Below are positions 3,055 to 64,000 of a stretch of 64,000 nt of DNA, piece by piece. Positions within the stretch are counted from its first letter, which is position 1; each line of letters starts with the position of its first letter. The notes under the pieces were generated by a model. It saw only the letters and a list, made by a program, of their open reading frames with translations, made no database searches and had not been told where the DNA came from. Source of the stretch: Candidatus Micrarchaeota archaeon (lineage in GTDB: Archaea > B1Sed10-29 > JAJRYS01); NCBI GenBank assembly GCA_964643685.1, contig CAZXTN010000003.1:15895-79894 (forward strand), given 5' to 3'. A program made the position numbers and the translations under genes.

Positions 3055-4302
3055 ATGCAAGTATTAAAAGAAAACACACAAGGAATTTTTTACGCTTCTT
3101 TAATGCTATTTCTTGTATTTGGCTTAACATTCATACTAGTAACTACTTTGAATCCATTTGAAACAAATTCATTAAATTTAAAAGCACCAGCACAGCCAGT
3201 AATACTCCCCATAGAATCACCAAGCTGCCCTGTTAACTTAACAACAATAACAAGCAAAGACACTGCAACTTTAAAATGGAACTTATGCAATGAAACAGAT
3301 TTTTACAGGCTAAACAAAAGAGTTTTAAACGGCAGTTGGCAATGGGTAAAAGATTATGAAAAAACAAGAAACAATGCCCTTGTATTAAGACAAGAAGAAG
3401 ATATGGAATACAGGATCATAGCCTTAATAGGAGAGTCACTGCAATTAAATGGAACAGAAAATAACACAATTTTAAACATTTCAAACACGATATTAATCCC
3501 AGCTAAAATACAAGAAGAGAGCAATACAAACACAACCCAAGAACAAGACAACTCAACAAGCCCTGAAAATGAAACAAGTTCAGAGCAGCAATTCACTTGT
3601 GCAATAAGCTTAAATTCACTTCAACAAAACAACAGCAGCCAATATACTTTAAAATGGAACTTGTGCAATGAAACAGATTTTTACAGGCTAAACAAAAGAG
3701 TTTTAAACGGCAGTTGGCAATGGGTAAAAGATTATGAAAAAACAAGAAACAATACAAATGTATCAATGGAAGACAAGGAAATAGAATACAGGATAATAGC
3801 AGCAAAAGGGCAGTCACTGCAGTTAAACGGAACAGAAAACATTACAATCCTAAACATTTCAAACACAGTGCTAATCCCTGCATTAATACAACAAGAAGAA
3901 AACACTACAAACACAACCCAAGAACAAAACACTACAACAGAAAATCCGCAGAATGAAACAAGCACAAGCAATACAACAAGCACGCAACAATGCAGCGACT
4001 CAGATGCAGGAATAAATAAAAACATTCAAGGAACAGCAACTCTTGGAACCACTTCAAAAACAGACTACTGCTCAGGAGGAGGCTTAATAGAATACTACTG
4101 CTTAGACAATCAAATAAAATCAGTTTACATTTCATGCGAAGACACATGCCAGAATGGAAAATGCATAACAAATACAACTCAAAATATCACCTCAACAGAA
4201 GAACCAGAACAAGTTCAACCACAACCAACAGTCAAAACAAACACAAACCCTTCAATAATAGACATTTTTTCAGCAATAATAAAATACTTTTTCAAAGTAT
4301 AA
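3055..4302 (+). CDS. membrane-anchored/secreted surface protein with two FN3-like repeats and a Cys-rich CxDSD.G module
   Basis: N-terminal TM; duplicated TLKWNLCNETDFYRLNKRVLNGSWQWV domain; many N-x-S/T sequons; CSDSDAG...TDYC...LIEYYC. Confidence 0.75.
   Translation: MQVLKENTQGIFYASLMLFLVFGLTFILVTTLNPFETNSLNLKAPAQPVILPIESPSCPVNLTTITSKDTATLKWNLCNETDFYRLNKRVLNGSWQWVKDYEKTRNNALVLRQEEDMEYRIIALIGESLQLNGTENNTILNISNTILIPAKIQEESNTNTTQEQDNSTSPENETSSEQQFTCAISLNSLQQNNSSQYTLKWNLCNETDFYRLNKRVLNGSWQWVKDYEKTRNNTNVSMEDKEIEYRIIAAKGQSLQLNGTENITILNISNTVLIPALIQQEENTTNTTQEQNTTTENPQNETSTSNTTSTQQCSDSDAGINKNIQGTATLGTTSKTDYCSGGGLIEYYCLDNQIKSVYISCEDTCQNGKCITNTTQNITSTEEPEQVQPQPTVKTNTNPSIIDIFSAIIKYFFKV
3268..3753 (+). 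repeat. intragenic direct repeat: 3268-3375 vs 3646-3753 (108 bp, 1 mismatch), weaker similarity continuing ~170 bp
   Basis: Direct comparison, offset 378 bp. Confidence 0.9.
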
Positions 4303-10414: not shown

Positions 10415-10888
10415 ATGTTGTTTAAAGATGCTTTGAAAAAAAGCAGGGGAGTTGAAGAAGTTAGTGCTTTGAATGAAAGCAGTGACAAGGAATTGACTGC
10501 TGCAATGGCTATTTTAAAGCCAGGAGTTTATGAAGTGCATGAATGGATTTTCATGTATTATAATGGAAAAGAAAATAAAACAACGCAAGTAGTGGTTACT
10601 GAACAAGGCGTTGAAGTGAAGAACCCTGAACAGCCTTTAAAACCAAGCACTGTTGCTCTTGATTTAAGTAAAGTTAAAACAAATTCAGATAATATGATTA
10701 AAAAAGCAGTTGATGAATTTAAAAAATACAAGAAGCCGTTAAGCCAAGTGATTATTAATTTGACACAAGAAGAAAAGCCTGTTTGGAGGTTCAGTTTTAT
10801 TACAAAAAGCTTGGAAGTAGTGACAATCAAAATCAATGCAGAAACAGGCGAAGTTTTAGATAAAAAGATACAAGCGTTAACTAAATAA
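10415..10888 (+). CDS. hypothetical protein with C-terminal PepSY-like segment
   Basis: PVW.F......I.INA.TGEVL. Confidence 0.65.
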   Translation: MLFKDALKKSRGVEEVSALNESSDKELTAAMAILKPGVYEVHEWIFMYYNGKENKTTQVVVTEQGVEVKNPEQPLKPSTVALDLSKVKTNSDNMIKKAVDEFKKYKKPLSQVIINLTQEEKPVWRFSFITKSLEVVTIKINAETGEVLDKKIQALTK

Positions 10889-10889
10889 A

Positions 10890-11013
10890 AGACAGCTAAG
10901 CGAAGCGCATGCTGTCTACAGGGGAATCAGAAACTCCCTAGAAATCAATCGCCTAAAGACTCAAACGTTTTTCCTTAACAGGAAAAACTGAGAGGGGCAG
11001 CCAGCCCCCTGCG
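10890..11013 (+). repeat. family-A palindromic element copy 1
   Basis: AGACAGCTAAGCGAAGCGCATGCTGTCT...AAACTGA..GGGGCAGCCAGCCCCCTGCG; near-identical ends to 63827-63907. Confidence 0.9.
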
Positions 11014-11019
11014 TTTCGG

Positions 11020-15030: not shown

Positions 15031-16884
15031 ATGAATCAGAAACTCAAAGATGAAAAAATAAAAGTAGTCAAACTAACCAAGTACTTAAGGTCACTGCCTT
15101 CAACAAAACAAGCTTACTTCTTAATCATCTTAACTTCAATAGTAATTGGAATAGCAAGCCACTACATACTTACCAGAAGCATAAGCCCAATAGATTCCCT
15201 AAAAGCAGGCACAATAATAGGACTGATTTTTCTAGGATTGCCTACAATAACAACTGCAATACTGACAACAACAATGACGCTTAAAACAAAAGCAAAAATA
15301 GACTTTAAAGAATCAGTCTACCTAGCAACAGCAGGAATGCTTATCATAACAATACCTTACTTGATTGGAATATGGCTTTCAACTTCAAACACCCTCTACC
15401 TCATTGACTTGCTTATATTCGGCTACTCAGCAATATTCCTAATAAGAGTAATTACAATAATACTAATCACCCCAAACGGGATAATAAAATCAACACCAAT
15501 CGCCTTAATCCAGCCACTCGCAGGATTCCTTTTCATTTCAACAATAACAGCAGTAAACACAGTATACACCCTCATACCAATGCCGCAGATAAACATATTC
15601 ACATTCACTGCAAAATCACTAATAAGCCTGGCAATAATGGTTGGAAGCACAATACTCCTGATAAAAGCAATCGACGCGCCGATGAAAAAAAACTTCGGCA
15701 TAAAATCAACAACACTTACCAGAGCTTTCCTCGCCCACTGGCTGAACAACTCCCTTGACATAGAAGAAAAAATGGCACCTTCAACAGAAAAAATAAACGC
15801 CTTAATAGGAATCATAACATTCAAGGCAAAAAACAAAATAAAAGCAGTGCTGATAACCCCTTACCTGCACCCAGGGCCATTCGCAGAAATAGCAGGAGCA
15901 AAAATAGCAAAAGAACTGACAAAAATAGACAAAGACCTAAACACCACTACCCTCGTGGCACACGGAACAGCAACCCACGACTTAAACCCAATGAGAACAG
16001 AAGACCTGCCTAAAATAAGAAAAACAATAACCCAGAAAATCAAAGCAATGAAATTCAAAAAAGAAAAAATGTCATTTGAAAAAGCAGAGACAAAAAACGC
16101 TGAAATGACAGGCGCGTCATTCGGAGACAACGTGTTCATGGCATCTTCTTTTTACCCGAAAGCAACAGAAGACATTGACTTGTCAATAGGAAAAAACATA
16201 ATGAGCAAAATGGAAAAAAACTTCACAAACGCCATTTACGCAGACGCGCATAATTGCAACAGGGACGGGCACTTCACAGTATTTTCAGGAGACCCTAGAA
16301 CAGCTTACCTTGAAGAAGCAGCAGAACAGCTAAGCAGAAAGCTGCTGAAAGCAAAAAAAGAAAACTTTCAAGTAGGAGTAAGCGCAGTTAAAATCAAAAA
16401 CTACTCAGAAAAAGAAGGCTTGGGGACAGCAGGCATAAGAACCCTTCTTTTCAAAACACAATCAGGAAAAAAATACGCTTTCATAATAATAGACGCTAAC
16501 AATTTGAAAGGCAACTTGAGAAAAACAATCCTCGATGAAGCCAAAAAACAAGGAATAGAAAAAGCAGAGGTAATGACAACAGACTCGCATACAGTAAACA
16601 ACATTCAAGGAGTATACAACCCGTTCGGAGAAAGAATACCATTGAATGAAATCAAAAAAGCAATAAGAAAAGGAATTGAAGAAGCTGAAAAAAACCTGGA
16701 GCAAGCAGAAGTAAGCGTGGAAAAAATAAAAGTCCCTGGAATAAGAGTGCTTGGAATGCAAAGAGCAAGCGAATTAATAGCAACTATAAATTCAATAGTT
16801 TCTTCAATGACAATACTAGGGCCTTTCGTCCTGGCAAGCGGAATACTGCTTTCGCTTCTGTCAATATTAATAATAACATGGTGA
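15031..16884 (+). CDS. DUF2070 family membrane protein
   Basis: N-terminal TMs; HPGPF, HG.ATHDLNP, DAHN, DANN, TTDSH. Confidence 0.85.
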   Translation: MNQKLKDEKIKVVKLTKYLRSLPSTKQAYFLIILTSIVIGIASHYILTRSISPIDSLKAGTIIGLIFLGLPTITTAILTTTMTLKTKAKIDFKESVYLATAGMLIITIPYLIGIWLSTSNTLYLIDLLIFGYSAIFLIRVITIILITPNGIIKSTPIALIQPLAGFLFISTITAVNTVYTLIPMPQINIFTFTAKSLISLAIMVGSTILLIKAIDAPMKKNFGIKSTTLTRAFLAHWLNNSLDIEEKMAPSTEKINALIGIITFKAKNKIKAVLITPYLHPGPFAEIAGAKIAKELTKIDKDLNTTTLVAHGTATHDLNPMRTEDLPKIRKTITQKIKAMKFKKEKMSFEKAETKNAEMTGASFGDNVFMASSFYPKATEDIDLSIGKNIMSKMEKNFTNAIYADAHNCNRDGHFTVFSGDPRTAYLEEAAEQLSRKLLKAKKENFQVGVSAVKIKNYSEKEGLGTAGIRTLLFKTQSGKKYAFIIIDANNLKGNLRKTILDEAKKQGIEKAEVMTTDSHTVNNIQGVYNPFGERIPLNEIKKAIRKGIEEAEKNLEQAEVSVEKIKVPGIRVLGMQRASELIATINSIVSSMTILGPFVLASGILLSLLSILIITW

Positions 16885-28329: not shown

Positions 28330-28577
28330 AAAAATTAGATTATATATTCTTTCATTCTTCTTTTGATCACCGAGCCGCGGGGGACTCACCGCCCCCCTCA
28401 ACTCTAGGTAACTCCTGCTCCCCCTGCTGACCACATGCGCTTCGCTTAGTGCTCATTTTTAGGGAATTCTTGAAAACTTTGAGTTTTCAAGTTTGCGAAG
28501 TTATATTTCGCATAATCTGATCTCCCTCCTTAATAATAAAAAAATTAGATTATATATTCTTTCATTCTTCTTTTGAT
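28330..28577 (-). repeat. perfect 38-bp direct repeat (28330-28367 = 28540-28577) of the regulator 3' end flanking a 172-bp palindromic insert
   Basis: AAAAATTAGATTATATATTCTTTCATTCTTCTTTTGAT present twice. Confidence 0.95.
28375..28455 (-). repeat. family-A palindromic element copy 2
   Basis: Reverse complement TGAGCACTAAGCGAAGCGCATGTGGTCAGCAGGGGGA...GTCCCCCGCGG matches 50490-50570. Confidence 0.9.
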
Positions 28578-43903: not shown

Positions 43904-44299
43904 ATGTCAGTTACAGTTGGACAAGTAAAAGACTTGAAAGAAGGAAGGTACGTCGTAATAGATGGAGAACCATGCAAAATAACTTCTATTCAAAAATCAA
44001 AGCCAGGTAAACACGGCTCAGCAAAAGCAAGAGTCGAAGGAGTATCCTTATTCAGCGGAAGCAAAAAAACACTTTTGAAAAGCGTTGACTCCTCATGCGA
44101 AATACCAGAACTCCTAAGAAAAAAAGCACAAGTAATAGCAAACCTTGGGGGAAACAGGCTTCAATTAATGGACTTGGAAACCTACGAAACATACGAAATT
44201 GACGTGGACCCAGAATACGCTGACTTGCAATCAGGCAGAGAAGTAGAAGTCCAAGAAATCATGGGAAGAAGATTCTTGACTCATGCCAAAAAGGAATAA
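43904..44299 (+). CDS. eif5a: translation factor aIF5A
   Basis: SKPGKHGSAK hypusination motif, QLMDLETYET. Confidence 0.97.
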   Translation: MSVTVGQVKDLKEGRYVVIDGEPCKITSIQKSKPGKHGSAKARVEGVSLFSGSKKTLLKSVDSSCEIPELLRKKAQVIANLGGNRLQLMDLETYETYEIDVDPEYADLQSGREVEVQEIMGRRFLTHAKKE

Positions 44300-44436
44300 T
44301 AGCTCTTCAAAATTATTTTTTCTTTTAGGGCGTGTTTTTCTTTTCCACAGGGTACACAGAAAAAGAAAAAGCGCGACGGAGGTTCCTAACACACGCAAAG
44401 AAAGAATAAGACTTTCTTCAAACTTACTTTTTTCTT
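44267..44436 (+). repeat. synonymously recoded duplicate of the aIF5A 3' end (44267-44299 vs 44377-44409) flanking a hairpin insert
   Basis: Both translate RRFLTHAKKE*; downstream UTRs also align. Confidence 0.9.
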
Positions 44437-44719
44437 ATTTTTTCAAAACCAGCTCCTTTTTTACTTGAACAAACACCCTATTAGCTTTATTCGTGTATTC
44501 AGGGCTTTTGACACCCCCTTACTTCCAGTATTCGGCGCTGAGAGATTTTTTCAGGAAATAAAAGCTTCTCCGGGCTTTTCGCTTCAAAAAAAGCTGGTAA
44601 AACAGGTTTTTTGATTGAATTTTCCTTTTTCTAGCTTTGTTTAAACTGGTTTTAACTTGCTAGTGTTTGAAAATTATTAAATTAAAATAAAATTTCAACA
44701 AAACTAAAACAAGCAAGTT

Positions 44720-46393: not shown

Positions 46394-46462
46394 AATACTT
46401 TTTAATAAGCAAAAATAACTATTTAAAATTAATTAAAAAAAAGCATGCAGAGTTTGAAAAAA

Positions 46463-47926
46463 ATGGCTGACGACATAAAATTCAACAAGAAAAAAAACAA
46501 AGACTTCTCAGAATGGTACTTTGAACTCTTAAAAGCAGCTGACGTCATAGACCAAAGATACCCAGCAAAAGGATTCATAGTCCACAAAGAAATAGCTGCA
46601 ATAGCAGAAAGAGAAATGTACAAATTATTTGAAAAAGAACTAGACAAAACAGGACACAAAATGATGAGATTCCCAGCAGTCATACCAGAATCAGTATTTG
46701 CAAAAGAAGTGGAACACATTGAAGGATTCACACCAGAAGTGTTCTGGATAGAAAAAGGAGGCAACGACGAACTCCCTGAAAAAATGGGACTACGTCCAAC
46801 CTCAGAAACAGCCATGTACACAATGTACTCAAAATGGATAAGAAGCTACAGAGACCTCCCACTCAAAGTTTACCAAGAAGCGCAAGTATGGAGATACGAA
46901 ACCAAACACACCCGTCCTTTACTCAGAGACAGGGAATTCTACTGGATAGAAGCGCACAACGTCTTCGCTTCAAGAGAAGAAGCTGAAAAACAAGTAACAG
47001 AAGACATGAACATCACAGAAAAAGTGCTACATGAACAACTAGGCATACCCTTCCTATTCTTCAAGCGCCCTGAATGGGACAAATTCAACGGAGCAGAATA
47101 CACTTACGGCGCAGACGTGCTAATGCCAAACGGCTTAGTAATACAACAGCCATCAACCCACTTCCTAGGGCAAAATTTCTCAAAAGCATATGACATAAAA
47201 TTCCTAGATGAAGACGAAAAAGAAAAATACGCGTGGCAAACATGCTACGGCCCGGCAATATCAAGAATACTCTCATCAGTAATCGCACTGCACGGCGACG
47301 ACAAAGGACTAATCTTCCCATGGAACATCGCGCCATACCAAGCAGTAATCATACCAATCTACAAAAAAGACACAGACAAAGAAGCAATAGAAAACAACTG
47401 CAAAGAACTGCAAAAACAATTGATTGAAAAAGGAGTTAGAGCAGAAATTGATTTAAGCGAAAAACGCCCAGGAGCAAAGTACTACTATTGGGAATTAAGA
47501 GGAGCATGCATAAGAATAGAAATCGGCGCAAGAGAAGTAGAAAACAAAGAACTTACAATCGCAAGAAGAGACACAGGAGAAAAAATAAAAATAAAACAAG
47601 AAGAACTAGACGCTTACCTTGAAAAACTCCCAAAAGAAATAATTAAAAATTTGAAAACAAAAAGAGACGAAGAATTCAAAAACGCGTTGCACGAAGCAAA
47701 CTCACTTGAAGAATTGAAAAAAGAGTTGGACAAAGGAGGATTCGTTAAAATCAACATTTGTTCAAGAGACACTGACGGAGAACAATGCGCCGATGTCATA
47801 AAAGCAGAAACCAACGGCGGAGAAGTAAGAGGAACACTCCACGGCAAAGAAGAAAAGCCAACAGGAAACTGCATAATATGCGGCAAAAAAGCAAACGCAG
47901 TAGTATACGTAGCAAAATCATATTAG
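46463..47926 (+). CDS. proS: prolyl-tRNA synthetase (archaeal/eukaryal type)
   Basis: FSEWY, LRPTSET, RYETK.T.PL.R.REF.W, HGDDKGL, C-terminal AKSY. Confidence 0.97.
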   Translation: MADDIKFNKKKNKDFSEWYFELLKAADVIDQRYPAKGFIVHKEIAAIAEREMYKLFEKELDKTGHKMMRFPAVIPESVFAKEVEHIEGFTPEVFWIEKGGNDELPEKMGLRPTSETAMYTMYSKWIRSYRDLPLKVYQEAQVWRYETKHTRPLLRDREFYWIEAHNVFASREEAEKQVTEDMNITEKVLHEQLGIPFLFFKRPEWDKFNGAEYTYGADVLMPNGLVIQQPSTHFLGQNFSKAYDIKFLDEDEKEKYAWQTCYGPAISRILSSVIALHGDDKGLIFPWNIAPYQAVIIPIYKKDTDKEAIENNCKELQKQLIEKGVRAEIDLSEKRPGAKYYYWELRGACIRIEIGAREVENKELTIARRDTGEKIKIKQEELDAYLEKLPKEIIKNLKTKRDEEFKNALHEANSLEELKKELDKGGFVKINICSRDTDGEQCADVIKAETNGGEVRGTLHGKEEKPTGNCIICGKKANAVVYVAKSY

Positions 47927-48044
47927 AAAAACCTTTAAAAACAATTAAAAGCATTAATTGAAAACAGAAGAGGGTTTTAACGCGACCATGCAACCAAAAC
48001 AGCCTCTTTCTGAAAAAAACAAATATTGATTAGAGTTGATTATC

Positions 48045-48210
48045 AAATGGACTTTAAGTTAAAAGAAAAACGCTGGAACACGGCTTTTCTTTTAAAAAAA
48101 GAAAACACCGGGAAAAGAAAACTAACCACATTCGACTACGTCGAAGTGCTTAGAAAAAAAGAGTGGTGAAGAAATGGACTTTAAGTTAAAAGAAAAACGC
48201 TGGAATACTG
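48045..48210 (+). repeat. duplicate of the valS 5' end (48047-48083 vs 48174-48210) flanking a hairpin insert
   Basis: Both encode MDFKLKEKRWNT; only AAC/AAT and ACG/ACT differ. Confidence 0.92.
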
Positions 48211-50483
48211 ATATTGAAAACGAGATAAACGAAAAATGGAAGCAGGAAAAATTATACAAATTCAACAAAAACACAGAAAAAGAGATAATTACAATTGACA
48301 ACCCACCAGCATACCCAAGCGGACACTGGCACCCCGGCTCAGCAACAGGATACTCATACATAGACATGATAGCACGCTACGAAAGAATGAACGGAAAAGA
48401 AATCAACTTCCCATACTGCCTTGACAGAAACGGCTTGCCAATTGAAATGGCAGTTGAAAAAAAATACAAAAAAAGCGCACACGACTATGACAGGGAAAAA
48501 TTCCTAAAACTCTGCGAACAAACAATCTCAGAATTCGGAGAAGAAATCAGAACCGGCTACGAAAAACTAGGAATATCAGTAGATTACGAAAACTACTACT
48601 ACACAGACATGGAAGAATACAGAAAACTAACACAAGCAACTTTCATAGAACTATACAAAAAAGGTTTAATCTATGAAGACGACAGGCCAACAAACTGGTG
48701 CACTGGATGCAAAACAACAATAGCAGATTCAGAAATAGAATACAACGAAGGCACAATAAAACTAAACAAGTTAAAATTCAAAGTAAAAGAAACAGGAGAA
48801 GAAATAGAAATAGCAACAACCCGTCCTGAACTATTATGCGCTTGTGAAACCGTAATATACAATCCAAAAGATAGCAGGTACAAGCACTTGAACGGAAAAC
48901 ATGCAATCACTCCAATATACGAAAAAGAAGTTTTAATACAACCGCACCCAGCAGCTTCAATGGAATACGGCTCAGGCTTAGTAATGATATGCTCATACGG
49001 GGACTCAACAGACGTGCAGTTATTCATTGAACTCGGTTTAAAGCCAACAAAGGCAATTGACAAGCATAGGAAAATGACAGAAGCAGCTGGAAAATACGCG
49101 GGATTAACAGTGCCAGAAGCAAGGGAAAAAATAATCAAAGAACTGGAAGAAACAGGCGTGTTAATAGGACAAGAAGACACGCCGCACAGGTACCCAATAT
49201 GCGAAAGATGCCACTCCCCAGTTGAAATCATAGCAATAAAAGAATTCTACTTAAAACAAATAGAGTTCCTAGACAAAGTAAAAGAGATGGCTGACAAGAC
49301 AAAATTCTATCCAGCAAAACACAAGCAAATACTCTTCGACTGGATAGACAGCGTGAAAATCGACTGGCCAATAAGCAGAAGAAGGTACTACGCAACAGAG
49401 ATACCATTATGGTACTGTGAAAAATGCGGAGAACTCCTCCTCCCAGAACCAGGAGAATATTACCAGCCATGGAAAAATAACCCGCCTGAAGGAAGCAAGT
49501 GTTCAAAATGCGGAGGAACAGAATTCAAAGGAGAAACAAGAGTATTCGACACTTGGATGGACTCCTCAATATCAAACTTATACGTAAGCGGATACAAAAG
49601 AGACGAAGAATTATTTAACAAAACATTTGGAAAAATCATACGCCCACAGGGAAGAGACATTGTAAGAACATGGCTCTATTACACAATGCTAAGAAATTAC
49701 CAGTTGCTTGAACAGCCTGCTTTTGAAAAAGTAATGATACACGGCATGGGCTTAGACGAGCATGGTAAGAAGATGAGCAAAAGCAAAGGCAACTTTATCT
49801 CACCAGAAGAAATGCTTTCAAAATACGGAGCAGACGCTTGGAGATTATGGGCAGCTTCAGAAACAAACATGGGAGAAGATTTCAGGATATCAGAAGAAAG
49901 AATAAAAGGAGCGTCAAAATTCCTGACAAAACTATGGAACCTAAGCAGGTTCATCTCCACATTTGAAATAAAAGAAACAGGAGAATTAAAAAACACGGAC
50001 CACTGGATACTCGCAGAATTAAACCAATTAATAAAACAAAGTAAAGAAGGATACGAAGAATACAACTTCTACATCCCAGCTACAAGAATCAAAGAATTTA
50101 TTTGGAACACTTTCTCATCAAACTATGTTGAAATGGTAAAACCAAGAGCATATGAAGGGGACACAGGAGCACTATACACCCTGCACACCTGTTTAAAGAC
50201 AATTTTGAAATTATTAGCTCCAATCACTCCGTTCATAACAGACAAGGTATATAGAGAAGTATATGGAAAAACAGTACACTTAGAGGCATTCCCAGAGGAG
50301 AATGAGAATTGGAACAGCAACTTCAAGGAGTTAACAGAAAAAATAATTGAATTCAATTCAATGGTATGGAAGACAAAAAAAGAACAAGGATTATCACTAA
50401 ACAGCGAAATAGAAGGAATAAAAATACCAAGCGAATTAAAACCATTTGAAGACGACTTAATCAAAATGCACAAGTTGAAATAA
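48174..50483 (+). CDS. valS: valyl-tRNA synthetase (archaeal type)
   Basis: TTRPELL, DWPISRRR, DTWMDSS, RPQG.DI.RTW, KMSKS. Confidence 0.95.
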   Translation: MDFKLKEKRWNTDIENEINEKWKQEKLYKFNKNTEKEIITIDNPPAYPSGHWHPGSATGYSYIDMIARYERMNGKEINFPYCLDRNGLPIEMAVEKKYKKSAHDYDREKFLKLCEQTISEFGEEIRTGYEKLGISVDYENYYYTDMEEYRKLTQATFIELYKKGLIYEDDRPTNWCTGCKTTIADSEIEYNEGTIKLNKLKFKVKETGEEIEIATTRPELLCACETVIYNPKDSRYKHLNGKHAITPIYEKEVLIQPHPAASMEYGSGLVMICSYGDSTDVQLFIELGLKPTKAIDKHRKMTEAAGKYAGLTVPEAREKIIKELEETGVLIGQEDTPHRYPICERCHSPVEIIAIKEFYLKQIEFLDKVKEMADKTKFYPAKHKQILFDWIDSVKIDWPISRRRYYATEIPLWYCEKCGELLLPEPGEYYQPWKNNPPEGSKCSKCGGTEFKGETRVFDTWMDSSISNLYVSGYKRDEELFNKTFGKIIRPQGRDIVRTWLYYTMLRNYQLLEQPAFEKVMIHGMGLDEHGKKMSKSKGNFISPEEMLSKYGADAWRLWAASETNMGEDFRISEERIKGASKFLTKLWNLSRFISTFEIKETGELKNTDHWILAELNQLIKQSKEGYEEYNFYIPATRIKEFIWNTFSSNYVEMVKPRAYEGDTGALYTLHTCLKTILKLLAPITPFITDKVYREVYGKTVHLEAFPEENENWNSNFKELTEKIIEFNSMVWKTKKEQGLSLNSEIEGIKIPSELKPFEDDLIKMHKLK

Positions 50484-50608
50484 AAAAAATGAGCACTAAG
50501 CGAAGCGCATGTGGTCAGCAGGGGGATCAGGATATCCCTAAAACTGAGGGGGACGGCAAGTCCCCCGCGGTTTGGATTGGAAAAAATGCACAAGTTAAAA
50601 TGAAAAAA
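50463..50608 (+). repeat. family-A element copy 3 (50490-50570) flanked by a duplicated valS 3' end (50463-50488 vs 50583-50608)
   Basis: AAAATGCACAAGTTGAAATAA vs AAAATGCACAAGTTAAAATGA. Confidence 0.88.
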
Positions 50609-50637
50609 GTGAAAACCAAAAGTGGTGAATAGATAAA

Positions 50638-53421
50638 ATGTATGACTTTAAAAAAGTAGAAGAGGAAATGCTGAAGCACTGGGAGGAAAACAAAATCTTC
50701 CAAAAGTTAATGGAACAAAACAAGGGAAAAGAAAAATACAGGTTCATAGACGGGCCAATCACTGCAAACAATCCAATGGGAGTTCACCACGCTTACTCAA
50801 GGACATTAAAAGACGCTTATCAAAGGCTAAAAGCAATGCAAGGATACAATCAAAGATTTCAAAACGGATTCGACTGCCACGGCTTGCCAGTGGAAGTGGT
50901 GGTAGAAAAAGATTTAGGCATAAGCACAAAAAAAGAATTAGAACAATATGGCATTGAAAAATTCATTGAGAAATGCAAGCAAAGAGTAGCAAAAATGAGC
51001 GAAATACAAAAACAGCAATCAATACGCTTAGGGCAATGGATGGACTGGGACAACAGTTATTACACAATGAGTGATGAGAACATTGAAACAATATGGGCTT
51101 TCCTTAAAAAAACACATGAAAAAAACATGCTTTACAAGGGGCACAAGGTAGTTCCGTGGTGCTGGAGATGCGGAACATCCCTTTCACAACACGAGTTAGC
51201 AGACGGCTACAAAGAACTGACACACGACACTGTTTACCTGCAATTCAAAATCAAAGGAAGAGACAATGAATACTTGTTAGTTTGGACTACAACGCCATGG
51301 ACTCTTTCTTCAAACGTAGCCTGCGCAGTCGGCTTAGATATTGTTTACTTGAAAGCAAAAAAAGACGGCAAAATTTACTATGTTTCTAAAAAAGTAGCTG
51401 AAGAAGTTTTAGGAAGTGATTATGAAGAACTTGGAGAAGTAAGCGGAGCGCAGTTGATTGGCTTGGAATACGAGGGGCCATACGACAACTTGCCTGCTCA
51501 AAAAGGAGTTGTTCACAAAGTAGTTGACTGGGAAGAAGTAGGAGAAGAAGATGGAACAGGAATAGTTCACATTGCGCCAGGCTGCGGAGCAGAGGACTTC
51601 GAACTAGGAAAAGAAAGAAACCTACCAGCAATAGCCCCAATAGATGAAAACGGCGAATATGTAGAGGGCTTCGGGTGGCTGACAGGAAAACACGTCAAAG
51701 AAGTCAAGCCATTAATCATCAAAGACCTGGAAGAAAGAGGAATCTTGTTCAAAGTTGGAAAAATCACGCACAGGTACCCAACTTGCTGGAGATGCAAAGA
51801 AGAACTCGTGTTCAGAAAAACAGATTCATGGTTCATAAAAGCAGATGAAGTAAGGGACAAAATGAAAGAATTAAACGAAAAAATTTACTGGTACCCTGAC
51901 TTCGGCGGAAAAATAATGAACAACTGGCTAGACAACTTGAAGGACTGGAATTTTTCAAGAAAAAGATACTGGGGAGCGCCTCTTCCATTCTGGGTATGTG
52001 AAAAATGCGGACACCTCCACGTAATAGGCTCGAGAAAAGAACTAGAAGAAAAAGCAATTAAGGGAATTGAGCAATTGAATGATCTTCACCGCCCTAACAT
52101 TGACAAGGTTGTAATTAAATGCGAAGAATGTGGAGCAGATGCAAAAAGAGTTGAGGAAGTCGCAGATGCCTGGCTTGACTCAGGAGTCGTGCCATACTCC
52201 ACTTTGCATTACTTAAAAGACAAGAACTACTGGGAAGAATGGTTCCCAAGCGAATTCATTTCAGAAATGAGAGAACAGATACGCCTATGGTTCTATTCAA
52301 TGCTGTTCATAAGCACGGTAATGGAAGAAAAAACTCCATTCGAGAAAGCGCTTATTTTTGAAAAAGTATACGATGAAAAAGGAAGAGAAATGCACAAGTC
52401 AGGTAAAAACGTCATATGGTTCGATGAAGGCATTGAAAAAATAGGAGCAGATGTAATGAGATGGATGTACGTCAAGACAAACCCGACTCAAAACGTGCTA
52501 TTCGGATACACCATAGGAAGAGAAGTGAACAACAAACTAAGTTACTTAGTAAACATAGGAAACTACTTGGAAAAATTCCTTGAAGAAAAACCAGAGGAAG
52601 TGAAAGCAGTTAAGCCAGAAGACAAGTGGCTGTTGTCAAGGCTTGAGAAGACAAAAAAAGAAGCCACGCAACACCTTGAAAAACTTGAAATACATTTGGC
52701 AACTAGAAAAATAGAAGACTTCCTTGAAAACACCCTGTCAAAAGAATACATCAAATACACAAGAAACAGGATGAAAACAGAGAAAAAAGAAGTAACAGGT
52801 TTGATTTACAAAGCACTCTTAGATACAGCTAAAATGATGGCTCCATTCACGCCATTCATAACAGACTACATTTACCAAAAGCACTTCAAGAAATACGAAG
52901 AAAAAGAAAGCATTCATTTGATGCAATGGCCTTCATACAACGAGCATTTAATTGATGAAAATCTTGAAGAAGAAATGAATGAAGTCAAAAAAACAATAGA
53001 AGAAGGACTAGCTAAAAGAAACGAGCTAAAAATTAATTTAAGGCAGCCTCTTCAAAAAATGACAATAACAGCAAAAAAACTAGACAAGTGGTTTGACTTA
53101 ATAAAAGAACAAGTAAACGTAAAAGAAATAGAAGAAGGAGAAGAGATAGGATTAGACACGAATATTACCCCTGAACTTGCAAAAGAGGGACTAACAAGAG
53201 AGATAACCAGAAGAATACAACAAATGAGAAAAGAATTGAAACTAATAGAATCAGATGAAATACTATTAAATATCAACCCAAAGCCAGACATCAACTACGA
53301 AGAACTTCAAAAAACAACAAACGCAGAAAAAGCAGGAGAATTAAGCGAAGCTGACTTGACTAAAAAATTCAAAGTAAAAGAAACTGAATATGAAATTAAG
53401 CTGAAAAAAAAGAAAAATTAA
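50638..53421 (+). CDS. ileS: isoleucyl-tRNA synthetase (IleRS2 type)
   Basis: DGP.TAN, GFDCHGLPVE, WTTTPWTL, GTG.VHIAP, SR.RYWG; GVHH and EMHKS signature variants. Confidence 0.96.
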   Translation: MYDFKKVEEEMLKHWEENKIFQKLMEQNKGKEKYRFIDGPITANNPMGVHHAYSRTLKDAYQRLKAMQGYNQRFQNGFDCHGLPVEVVVEKDLGISTKKELEQYGIEKFIEKCKQRVAKMSEIQKQQSIRLGQWMDWDNSYYTMSDENIETIWAFLKKTHEKNMLYKGHKVVPWCWRCGTSLSQHELADGYKELTHDTVYLQFKIKGRDNEYLLVWTTTPWTLSSNVACAVGLDIVYLKAKKDGKIYYVSKKVAEEVLGSDYEELGEVSGAQLIGLEYEGPYDNLPAQKGVVHKVVDWEEVGEEDGTGIVHIAPGCGAEDFELGKERNLPAIAPIDENGEYVEGFGWLTGKHVKEVKPLIIKDLEERGILFKVGKITHRYPTCWRCKEELVFRKTDSWFIKADEVRDKMKELNEKIYWYPDFGGKIMNNWLDNLKDWNFSRKRYWGAPLPFWVCEKCGHLHVIGSRKELEEKAIKGIEQLNDLHRPNIDKVVIKCEECGADAKRVEEVADAWLDSGVVPYSTLHYLKDKNYWEEWFPSEFISEMREQIRLWFYSMLFISTVMEEKTPFEKALIFEKVYDEKGREMHKSGKNVIWFDEGIEKIGADVMRWMYVKTNPTQNVLFGYTIGREVNNKLSYLVNIGNYLEKFLEEKPEEVKAVKPEDKWLLSRLEKTKKEATQHLEKLEIHLATRKIEDFLENTLSKEYIKYTRNRMKTEKKEVTGLIYKALLDTAKMMAPFTPFITDYIYQKHFKKYEEKESIHLMQWPSYNEHLIDENLEEEMNEVKKTIEEGLAKRNELKINLRQPLQKMTITAKKLDKWFDLIKEQVNVKEIEEGEEIGLDTNITPELAKEGLTREITRRIQQMRKELKLIESDEILLNINPKPDINYEELQKTTNAEKAGELSEADLTKKFKVKETEYEIKLKKKKN

Positions 53422-63682: not shown

Positions 63683-63757
63683 GGGCCGCTAGCTTAGTCT
63701 GGTTGGAGCATTCGACTGATAATCGAAAGGTCGGGAGTTCAAATCTCCTGCGGCCCA
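63683..63757 (+). tRNA. tRNA-Ile(GAT)
   Basis: GGGCCGC/GCGGCCC acceptor, TTCGA-CTGATAA-TCGAA anticodon arm, GTTCAAATC. Confidence 0.95.
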
Positions 63758-63977
63758 CTTAACAAAACCAAAAAAAACAAAAACAAATTTTTTCTTTTAG
63801 GGCGTGTTTTTCTCTTTATCAAAAAAAGACAGCTAAGCGAAGCGCATGCTGTCTGCAGGGGAATCAGGAAGAACTTGAAACTGAAGGGGGCAGCCAGCCC
63901 CCTGCGGTTAAGTGAGGATCTCCTGCGGCCCACTTAACAAAACCAAAAAAAAACAAAAACAAATTTTTTCTTTAGGG
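63743..63977 (+). repeat. 60-bp direct repeat (63743-63802 vs 63918-63977) of the tRNA-Ile 3' end plus trailer, flanking family-A element copy 4 (63827-63907)
   Basis: ATCTCCTGCGGCCCACTTAACAAAACC...TTTAGGG twice, differing only in homopolymer lengths. Confidence 0.93.
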
Positions 63978-64000
63978 AGAATTAAAAAAAAGGATTAAAT

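Follow-up and report, generated by a model that had tools for sequence, protein, structure and literature searches.

Small hairpin inserts between duplicated gene termini at valS and other gene boundaries of a vent archaeon

The valine-tRNA ligase gene (valS) of a Candidatus Micrarchaeota archaeon is bracketed by second, slightly altered copies of its own two ends, and the question raised by this locus is whether the present gene replaced an older one, whose tips were left outside, or whether each end was altered on its own. The locus lies in a stretch of 64,000 nucleotides (nt), referred to here as the window (positions 15,895 to 79,894 of contig CAZXTN010000003.1, assembly GCA_964643685.1); coordinates are those of the window unless a contig label (C1, C3, and so on) precedes them. 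The genome of this vent archaeon, designated G000, is a metagenome bin of ∼0.7 Mb in 12 contigs (91.75% complete, 87% coding). We consider it very probable that valS has an ordinary, vertical descent and that its two ends were struck in separate, independent events by small noncoding hairpin repeats, each of which duplicated its target.

Duplicated termini and inserts at valS

The features on which the argument turns are the following.

48045..48082, + strand: stranded valS start (12 codons, MDFKLKEKRWNT, preceded by 2 leader bases), with the native upstream region before it
48047..48169, + strand: 40-codon frame that opens at the stranded ATG and crosses the insert, in frame inside open reading frame (ORF) 48026..48169
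48083..48171, + strand: 5' insert, 89 nt, noncoding, between the stranded and the working valS start
48174..50483, + strand: valS, intact, 769 amino acids (NCBIfam NF009687, valine--tRNA ligase, 918.4 bits)
50463..50492, + strand: left copy of the 3' direct repeat, the working valS end (KMHKLK*) plus 9 nt
50484..50582, + strand: 3' insert, an element of the family designated A, whose A-rich 5' edge overlaps the repeat
50583..50612, + strand: stranded valS end (KMHKLK*, with TTA and TGA) plus 9 nt, beyond which lies the native valS-ileS spacer

At the start of the gene, positions 48045 to 48078 match positions 48172 to 48205 exactly (34 of 34 nt), and with four more bases (48079 to 48082) the duplicated target reaches 38 nt, in which the only differences are at third positions (AAC/AAT and ACG/ACT). 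Both copies encode MDFKLKEKRWNT, and the stranded ATG (48047) lies 127 nt from the true one (48174). At the end of the gene, the duplicated target comprises the last 6 codons, the stop codon, and the next 9 nt. Of these 30 nt, 27 are identical at a spacing of 120 nt; TTG has become TTA and TAA has become TGA, and KMHKLK* is read from both copies. The layout is the same at the two ends, with one copy of the terminus joined to the gene, which is intact, and the other beyond the insert. The locus thus has the structure that an initial annotation had described from the letters alone, namely, a synonymously varied start copy followed by an insert of ∼90 bp upstream and a family-A element followed by a recoded KMHKLK* downstream. 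The concern that such matches might arise by chance could be dismissed: none of 100 dinucleotide-preserving shuffles of the window gave any match for the 5' repeat, which had 2 matches in the real sequence, and none gave a match for the 3' repeat. The search for valS covered 31 genomes, the present one among them, and each had a match.

The inserts at the two ends of valS are not the same element. Upstream lies a composite distinct from family A, and its sole full-length match in the genome is itself. A hairpin formed by an A/T palindrome (∼48085 to 48105) adjoins the stranded copy, and a second one (∼48122 to 48153), when read on the minus strand, is similar to the H1-variant hairpins that occur in other inserts; the first hairpin proposed in the initial annotation (GGCTTTTCTTTT-AAAAAAA-GAAAACACC) is present and folds. 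Predicted folding energies of the whole insert were −21.3 kcal/mol (z = −3.35) for the plus strand and −23.9 kcal/mol (z = −4.13) for the minus strand. The 40-codon frame ends with TGA 4 nt before the valS ATG, and GGTGA lies 4 nt upstream of that ATG. Judged from the letters, valS might be expressed from its native promoter through the 40-codon frame, beside the GGTGA supplied by the insert, which could serve as a Shine-Dalgarno sequence, or the frame could be translationally coupled to valS.

The 3' insert contains three hairpins, H1 (GAGCAC-TAAGCGAAGCGCATG-TGGTC), H2 (GGGGGAT..ATCCCT), and H3 (AACTGAGGGGGAC..GTCCCCCGCGGTT), with a predicted folding energy of −38.6 kcal/mol (z = −3.70), and positions 50484 to 50575 match the covariance model of family A with 111.1 bits. 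In a search of Rfam, the 3' element had no match up to an E value of 1, and the 5' insert had no family at gathering score and two subthreshold matches (17 to 20 bits, E values of 0.07 to 0.1); across the window and 8 loci, only tRNAs reached gathering score.

The junctions were checked against Logan contigs assembled from public runs, as opposed to raw reads, over positions 47900 to 50700. In run X1, which may be the source sample of the genome, one contig spanned the whole 5' insert (48049 to 48201), another ran from valS into the 3' element (48176 to 50514), and a third led from the element through the stranded copy to ileS (50509 to 50700), in each case with 0 differences. Runs X3 (50418 to 50570) and X5 (50404 to 50568) also had contigs that lead from the end of valS into the element without a difference, and the 5' insert was covered in X1 alone, the contigs of runs X3 to X5 not extending over it. 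All four valS junctions were therefore carried by contigs of public runs. The contig with the 5' insert had a depth of 52.5, compared with 75.4 and 92.1 in its flanks, although contig depth is not the share of insert-bearing cells. An empty 5' allele would be invisible in such contigs, since the 34-nt repeat exceeds the contig word size and the allele would have no word of its own.

It is extremely improbable that the duplicated ends are an assembly artefact, that is, strain variants or a wrongly strung path through the repeat graph. Reasons for suspicion exist, since the source genome is a metagenome bin, two 55-nt duplications surround runs of 100 N in the assembly, and a redundant contig (C8) shares 25,448 nt with part of C1. 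However, independent contigs carry each junction with 0 differences and at similar depth (92.1 and 93), two more runs carry the junction between valS and the 3' element, the repeats are diverged and not identical, and the pattern recurs in another genus.

The replacement of a whole valS cassette, the other possibility raised initially, could be judged by comparison with the neighboring genes and with a relative, L025.

46445..47926, + strand: proS, upstream neighbor (NCBIfam TIGR00408, proline--tRNA ligase, 490.9 bits, above the cutoff)
50638..53421, + strand: ileS, downstream neighbor (TIGR00392, isoleucine--tRNA ligase, 744.4 bits)

L025 is a metagenome contig with a valS of 86% identity and the same proS-valS-ileS order, and the comparison was confined to these genes. 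It carries no insert at either valS end: there is no start copy upstream, and the ileS ATG follows the valS stop after 19 nt. The sequence behind the stranded valS end (AAAAAGTGA...) resembles the L025 valS-ileS spacer. Among more distant relatives, all 6 loci inspected (of 11 fetched) were insert free. The divergence of valS from L025 (85.6% amino acid and 83.8% nucleotide identity; 195 of 658 codons for identical amino acids different, 29.6%) was in agreement with that of proS (84.5% and 83.3%; 113 of 365, 31.0%) and ileS (89.6% and 83.3%; 153 of 441, 34.7%), and no 60-codon window along valS was outlying. At fourfold-degenerate sites, valS was somewhat lower (56/191) than proS (43/118) and ileS (62/137), and the neighbors differed equally from each other.

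A cassette in which the present valS, with outward-facing hairpins, replaced an older valS and left its tips outside is therefore very improbable. Such a replacement would account for the duplication of both tips and for the hairpin end of each insert, which faces the stranded copy at both ends of valS. Against it stand the concordant divergence of the three genes, the different elements at the two ends, the ∼30 other genes hit at a single end (see below), and the relative with the same gene order that is empty at both. The alternative reading, two independent end events, fits this evidence. As for the notion that the outer fragments are the ends of an earlier valS, stranded terminus copies with function-preserving differences are indeed present, but the notion holds only in a weaker form, in which the two copies of a valS terminus may have come from different lineages.

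Similar inserts and recoded ends across the genome

To find comparable structures, all 12 contigs were scanned by seed and extension for short-range direct repeats, and the matches were sorted manually. The scan yielded 58 repeats, 46 of them with a spacing of 260 nt or less. After sorting (2 N-gap artefacts, ∼7 protein-internal or unclear cases, and several rows that belonged to the same array), ∼30 events at gene boundaries remained: 9 at clear tRNA 3' ends, 5 at tRNA 5' ends, 4 or 5 at protein starts, and ∼10 at protein ends, including three detected only at the protein level. They share one layout, in which an 18- to 60-nt repeat of a tRNA or protein gene terminus is followed by an insert of 12 to 190 nt and by the repeat again. 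In the tRNA 3' events the repeat begins at the T-loop or T-stem irrespective of its length (18 or 60 nt), and in the tRNA 5' events it stops in the D-arm. Further events in the window, and one element copy of a different kind, are listed here.

44300..44409, + strand: end of aIF5A (gene 43904-44299), with an 80-nt insert (44300-44379) and a stranded RFLTHAKKE* (44380-44409)
28330..28577, − strand: end of an unnamed ORF (29228-28545), with the working copy at 28540-28577 and the stranded copy at 28330-28367
63743..63978, + strand: event at tRNA-Ile (63683-63758), with 60-nt repeats at 63743-63802 and ∼63918-63978 that run from the T-loop to past the 3' end
10884..11019, + strand: long-form family-A copy (60.5 bits) without a recognizable flanking repeat (best flank match, 8 nt)

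The core of the aIF5A insert is identical in 58 of 59 positions to a copy on contig C8. The insert at the unnamed ORF is a composite that includes a family-A element (28370 to 28460, 101.9 bits in the model); its repeat is 100% identical over 38 nt, extends to 48 nt if two gaps of 1 nt and a single mismatch are allowed, and is recognized at the protein level as KRRMKEYII*. The tRNA-Ile repeats bracket a piece of the aIF5A-type element plus a family-A element (63822 to 63912). Inserts are modular and nested, with H1 within the H3 loop and a hairpin within the H2 loop. Arrays of the form repeat-element-repeat-element-repeat occur at C6:36369 and C1:110404, and in one array the second insertion targeted an already stranded fragment. 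The gene of an iron-sulfur (FeS) cluster protein at C3:6596, which we take to be endonuclease-III-like (nth), reads 7 codons into the insert, and its native last 4 codons are stranded; thus, an insertion need not spare the reading frame.

Some repeats found in the scan have other causes. The two perfect 55-nt duplications around 100 N (C1:199881-200090 and C4:40522-40731) are scaffolding artefacts and not insertions, and one of them gave a false match to a stranded C terminus. Contig C8 contains 25,448 nt that are 100% identical to C1:75901-101348, with different flanks on both sides. Its left edge shows a 55-nt repeat, an aIF5A-type element, and the 55-nt repeat again, where C1 has only an 18- to 20-nt piece of the element. 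The overlap could reflect either bin redundancy or two strain arrangements. The two contigs were considered as a pair from before and after an insertion, and this was rejected because both flanks of the identical block differ, so the comparison is not a clean one.

The A/T palindrome of the valS 5' insert recurs both at other inserts and in tRNA regions, and a palindrome of this type stands at the beginning of two inserts at tRNA 5' ends (C1:112422 and C1:166242). At tRNA-Met (C1:112400-112640), whose D-loop contains an intron of 38 nt, the insert at the 5' end of the gene has a repeat that stops exactly at the exon-intron border. In the neighboring tRNA-Leu(CAG) region (C1:112165-112400), the same palindrome lies inside a 375-nt intron called by ARAGORN. 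The tRNA genes found in the whole genome number only 21, and 12 of these contain introns.

Family A consists of three hairpins: H1 with the loop TAAGCGAAGCGCATG, H2, and an extended H3 ending in GCGGTTCGG. A covariance model built from 9 copies had 13 matches in this genome, 7 in a genome of genus g5 (G004), and 1 each in genera g3 and g6, that is, in 4 of the 18 genomes of the order; at an E value of 1e-4 or less the counts were 12, 5, 1, and 1, in 4 of the 31 genomes of the class. In the 9 aligned copies, 97.1% of the cells were paired, compared with 87.6% in shuffles (0 of 500 reached the real value), and 11 pairs showed compensatory double changes, compared with 4.5 in shuffles and at most 2 in slid controls. 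When the element is read on the strand of the upstream gene, 18 cells are G-U pairs. Flanking repeats of 19 to 60 nt were present at 7 of the 14 family-A or H1-type copies examined. In genus g5, repeats of 20 to 67 nt accompanied 5 of the 7 copies, and 3 copies stand behind recognizable tRNA 3' ends, with the repeat beginning in the T-loop. A 27-base degenerate H1 pattern had no match in the species genome collection, in which the valS protein found only distant relatives (55% or less). The conserved H1 loop (50496 to 50510 in the window, and all H1 copies) contains GCGAAGC, which we take to be an unusually stable DNA mini-hairpin motif.

The stranded protein ends proved to be recoded mostly in a way that preserves function. 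At aIF5A, the ten codons RFLTHAKKE* recur 80 bases downstream with 8 base differences, all of them synonymous; at C1:194047, function-preserving changes affect 7 of 10 codon positions, including CGT to AGG and one stop-to-stop change; and at C6:1260, five such changes stand against one amino acid change. Counting synonymous, stop-to-stop, and start-to-start changes as function preserving, 12 coding pairs contained 38 function-preserving and 12 changing codon differences. When the same numbers of base changes were placed randomly, 40.9 changing differences were expected, and in none of 5,000 simulations was the number as low as 12. Similar behavior was seen in the 9 pairs detected from nucleotide seeds only, which are free of ascertainment by amino acid (19 versus 9, with 23.3 changing differences expected; 0 of 5,000). 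A protein-level scan detected 8 stranded C termini, one of them the N-gap artefact, compared with 2 in a 20-fold control. Two pairs were left out of the count: C5:42138, whose sole difference is upstream of the ATG, and C4:52766, whose upstream copy opens a plausible ORF of 30 amino acids. The latter (C4:52766-52900, MADYKMQNQGTLEELYELIDALMEKIKKEF*) has its first five codons, one of them changed, in common with the gene 118 nt downstream, and it could be a stranded start from which a small protein is now read, or the resemblance could be fortuitous.

The bias is not what would be expected of a stranded copy drifting freely after duplication. Either the two copies derive from separate lineages, each having served there as a functional end of the gene, or selection acts in some way on both. 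The aIF5A duplicate was not found in five relatives of other genera and is therefore not an old conserved feature. Repeats were less similar than the elements between them: at aIF5A, the repeats are 73% identical and the insert matches another copy in 58 of 59 positions, and at C6:1260, the repeats agree in 23 of 30 positions and the element in 94 of 100 with another copy. These values are suggestive of elements younger than their repeats, and only suggestive, since one copy could be the source of the other. Downstream of aIF5A (44505 to 44540), the motif CCCCCTTACTTCCAGTATTC is present here and in three other genera of the family (L106, L107, and L108), and it occurs twice in genome G001; it may be a conserved small RNA or a conserved signal.

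Possible origins of the inserts

For the way in which the inserts arose, we tentatively propose a two-step mechanism, target-duplicating insertion followed by exchange of the element-bearing ends between diverged lineages. The element would be copied into a break or a stalled fork and would duplicate 18 to 67 nt of the target, through widely staggered nicks that are filled in or through template switching at hairpin-prone gene ends, by host repair enzymes or by an enzyme yet to be recognized. In a genome that is 87% coding and has tiny spacers, only duplications that span a gene boundary would spare both neighbors, so the survivors would be located at gene termini. The element-bearing ends would then pass among diverged coresident lineages through recombination, whether homologous or homeologous, or else a circle containing element and repeat would loop out and reenter at the same terminus. 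Working and stranded copies would thus derive from different lineages, in each of which they were selected as real ends, and the synonymous recoding would follow. Taken together, the explanation as a whole, which blends a confident account of what happened at valS with this less certain account of how, appears fairly probable.

Several observations weigh against it. The junctions at aIF5A and at all other loci rest on the assembly alone. The empty sites are those of a relative with 83.8% nucleotide identity, in which loss is formally possible, and a site in both its empty and its filled form was not seen within any one species; contigs cannot reveal an empty 5' allele. In the 91.75%-complete genome, there were 0 matches to Phage_integrase (PF00589), Resolvase (PF00239), RVT_1, and Cas1, and likewise 0 to Y1_Tnp, DDE_Tnp_1, rve, and DEDD_Tnp_IS110. 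At valS the differences are few (2 and 3), and simple drift after duplication could equally explain them; outgroups are split, with 3 sites at which they agree with the stranded copy and 2 at which they agree with the working one. Random insertion plus selection leaves the fixed breakpoints in T-loop and D-arm unexplained, and microhomology at the junctions (GGTTCG) agrees with family A and not with the hairpin-B inserts. Finally, recoding requires a second process, which is unobserved, and homologous recombination would be hard at 73% (aIF5A) or 53% (C1:194047) identity.

The breakpoint rule is best accounted for if the inserts are miniature integrative elements, remnants or trans-mobilized mini-forms of a plasmid or virus that integrates site specifically. 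The element would then carry the terminus as its attP, attL would rebuild the gene, and attR would be the stranded native end. Repeats that run from the T-loop past the tRNA 3' end whatever their length are the classical att layout, as described for archaeal islands (PMC9897764), and repeats rebuilding the terminus from the T-loop or T-stem were found in the 9 clear tRNA 3' events of G000 and in 3 of G004. The mostly synonymous differences between working and stranded ends, as in e14 and icd/icdC (PMC13626634), the tandem arrays, and the later insertion into a stranded fragment point the same way. Nevertheless, this origin is quite improbable. Neither tyrosine nor serine recombinases were matched in this genome. 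Across the 18 genomes of the order, tyrosine recombinases occurred in 7, with no association with family A, and the two genomes richest in the family (G000, 13 copies; G004, 7 copies) had none. The inserts are gene free, the valS inserts measuring 89 and ∼90 nt and all inserts 12 to 190 nt, whereas integrative elements are kilobase sized and bear genes. One family is found at many unrelated targets (valS, two other protein genes, and several tRNA or tRNA-like ends), a range of sites incompatible with a site-specific enzyme. In viral contigs, two H2-H3 patterns had 0 matches each, and the 16-base H1 loop had 3, in phage contigs of 43 to 54% G+C without the rest of the element; these were taken as chance. 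The H1 16-mer lies inside hairpins of two unrelated phage contigs (L215 and L217). No Phage_integrase-type protein was found in 4 of the 5 genomes of the family (G000, G001, G003, and G004); such proteins would presumably include a XerA-like dimer resolvase.

The inserts would instead be nonautonomous transposons, similar to miniature inverted-repeat transposable elements, if a transposase made long target duplications of variable length and later allelic recombination caused the recoding. This, too, is unlikely, even though the repeats are variable (18 to 60 nt in G000 and up to 67 nt in G004, instead of a fixed short length) and identical in the youngest events (55/55, 28/28, and 26/26), the families are dispersed and have defined cores, and elements have inserted into the loops of other elements. 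IS1634 and IS1549 provide a precedent, with repeats of 8 to 514 bp (PMC2266710). However, no DDE, rve, IS110, Y1, or TnpB-type protein was above the cutoff (the TnpB-type model had one subthreshold zinc-ribbon match, 23.6 bits compared with a cutoff of 26.3 bits), and the DDE transposase of the IS1634-like elements had 0 matches. No inverted pair spans either valS insert, the ends of family A are not complementary, and the breakpoints in tRNA genes are nonrandom. The lack of RVT_1 matches in the genome likewise offers nothing to a retroelement, and, although palindromes are present, Y1_Tnp, the transposase family of systems of repetitive extragenic palindromes (REPs), had 0 matches. A further possibility, and a doubtful one, is a mobile element of an undescribed kind in small-genome archaea, made of structured modules of ∼50 to 150 nt that travel with a copy of the host terminus. 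A small circle or an RNA-derived intermediate would reenter the same terminus in other lineages, the host gene would always gain a working recoded end while its native end was stranded, and the breakpoints would be set by the D- and T-loops of tRNA without any classical recombinase.

Two other readings were considered and set aside. If the repeat edges were transcript ends, some 5' events and the terminators of aIF5A and tRNA-Ile would be explained, but the reading fails at the valS 3' repeat, which has no T-run, and at the C3:6596 repeat, which is entirely coding. Bulge-helix-bulge splicing was considered by eye only; no complementary intron ends were seen at the tRNA-Gln and tRNA-Ile boundaries, and the gene is complete unspliced. 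A scan for bacterial-type promoters gave 5 promoter-like sites, compared with 5.8 expected, and one for bacterial-type terminators gave 6 sites, all on the minus strand, three of them being the element hairpins H3 and H1; both scans are uninformative for an archaeon.

Relation to known systems and consequences

The inserts resemble several known systems in part. Long target duplications of variable length are shared with IS1634 and IS1549, for which a range of 8 to 514 bp and no accepted mechanism are reported and whose family is said to occur preferentially among Euryarchaeota (PMC2266710). These insertion sequences measure 1.5 to 2 kb and encode a DDE transposase, whereas the inserts here have no such gene match and no terminal inverted repeats. 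The icd gene of Escherichia coli is occupied by phage 21 in the same manner as by e14. At icd, e14 supplies a replacement 3' end and strands the native end as icdC, with largely synonymous differences (PMC13626634), which is the combination of a recoded replacement end and a stranded native fragment seen here. However, e14 is a prophage of 15 kb that brings its own integrase and uses a single fixed site, and the present inserts are gene free, of 12 to 190 nt, and located at ∼30 sites at both 5' and 3' ends. In islands and viruses integrated at archaeal tRNA genes, a repeat of the tRNA 3' part brackets the insert and leaves one full and one partial tRNA gene, as with the 44-bp repeats that flank a 21.4-kb archaeal island (PMC9897764). 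Those elements are of 9 to 23 kb and are integrated by an integrase; the inserts here are of ∼100 nt and are also found at 5' ends and at protein genes.

In size and structure, the closest likeness is to extragenic palindromes. REP/BIME, ERIC, Correia, and Rickettsia palindromic elements are short, structured, multicopy extragenic hairpins located mostly just 3' of genes, and REPs are associated with RAYT (Y1) transposases. To our knowledge, none of these elements duplicates tens of target bases. Here, Y1_Tnp had no match and no Rfam family was assigned. In mitochondrial gene hybrids, the native C terminus remains as a pseudogene. Such hybrids are described in fungal mitochondria as arising by endonuclease-mediated transfer (PMC3787672), and they and the double-hairpin elements offer a likeness in the foreign gene end and in mobile small hairpins of compact, A+T-rich genomes. 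The mitochondrial events are driven by homing-endonuclease ORFs, whereas the inserts here contain no ORF. The pattern is thus the att-like layout of tRNA islands joined to the recoded ends of e14/icd and to the size and structure of extragenic palindromes, without the defining enzyme of each. No description of terminus-duplicating mini-elements in archaea was found in the literature covered, which mostly excludes subscription journals.

If the explanation is correct, a gene-dense genome of 0.7 Mb tolerates ∼30 selfish inserts without gene loss, because each insert duplicates the gene end that it enters, and mobile DNA has a way to persist where spacer DNA is nearly nil. The recoded stranded ends would then be a traceable record of exchange between diverged lineages at essential genes (aminoacyl-tRNA synthetases, aIF5A, nth, and tRNAs), and the apparent absence of known recombinases would mean that the conserved hairpins are read by an unrecognized enzyme or that host repair acts unaided. 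For annotation, stranded fragments yield false partial tRNAs and small ORFs, and inserts alter 5' leaders and C termini, as at C3:6596. One further repeat in the window is of a different kind: positions 3268 to 3518 and 3646 to 3896 form a 251-nt direct repeat with 85% identity, a spacing of 378 nt, and a 108-nt near-identical core, which looks like a repeat within a coding region rather than one of the insert type.

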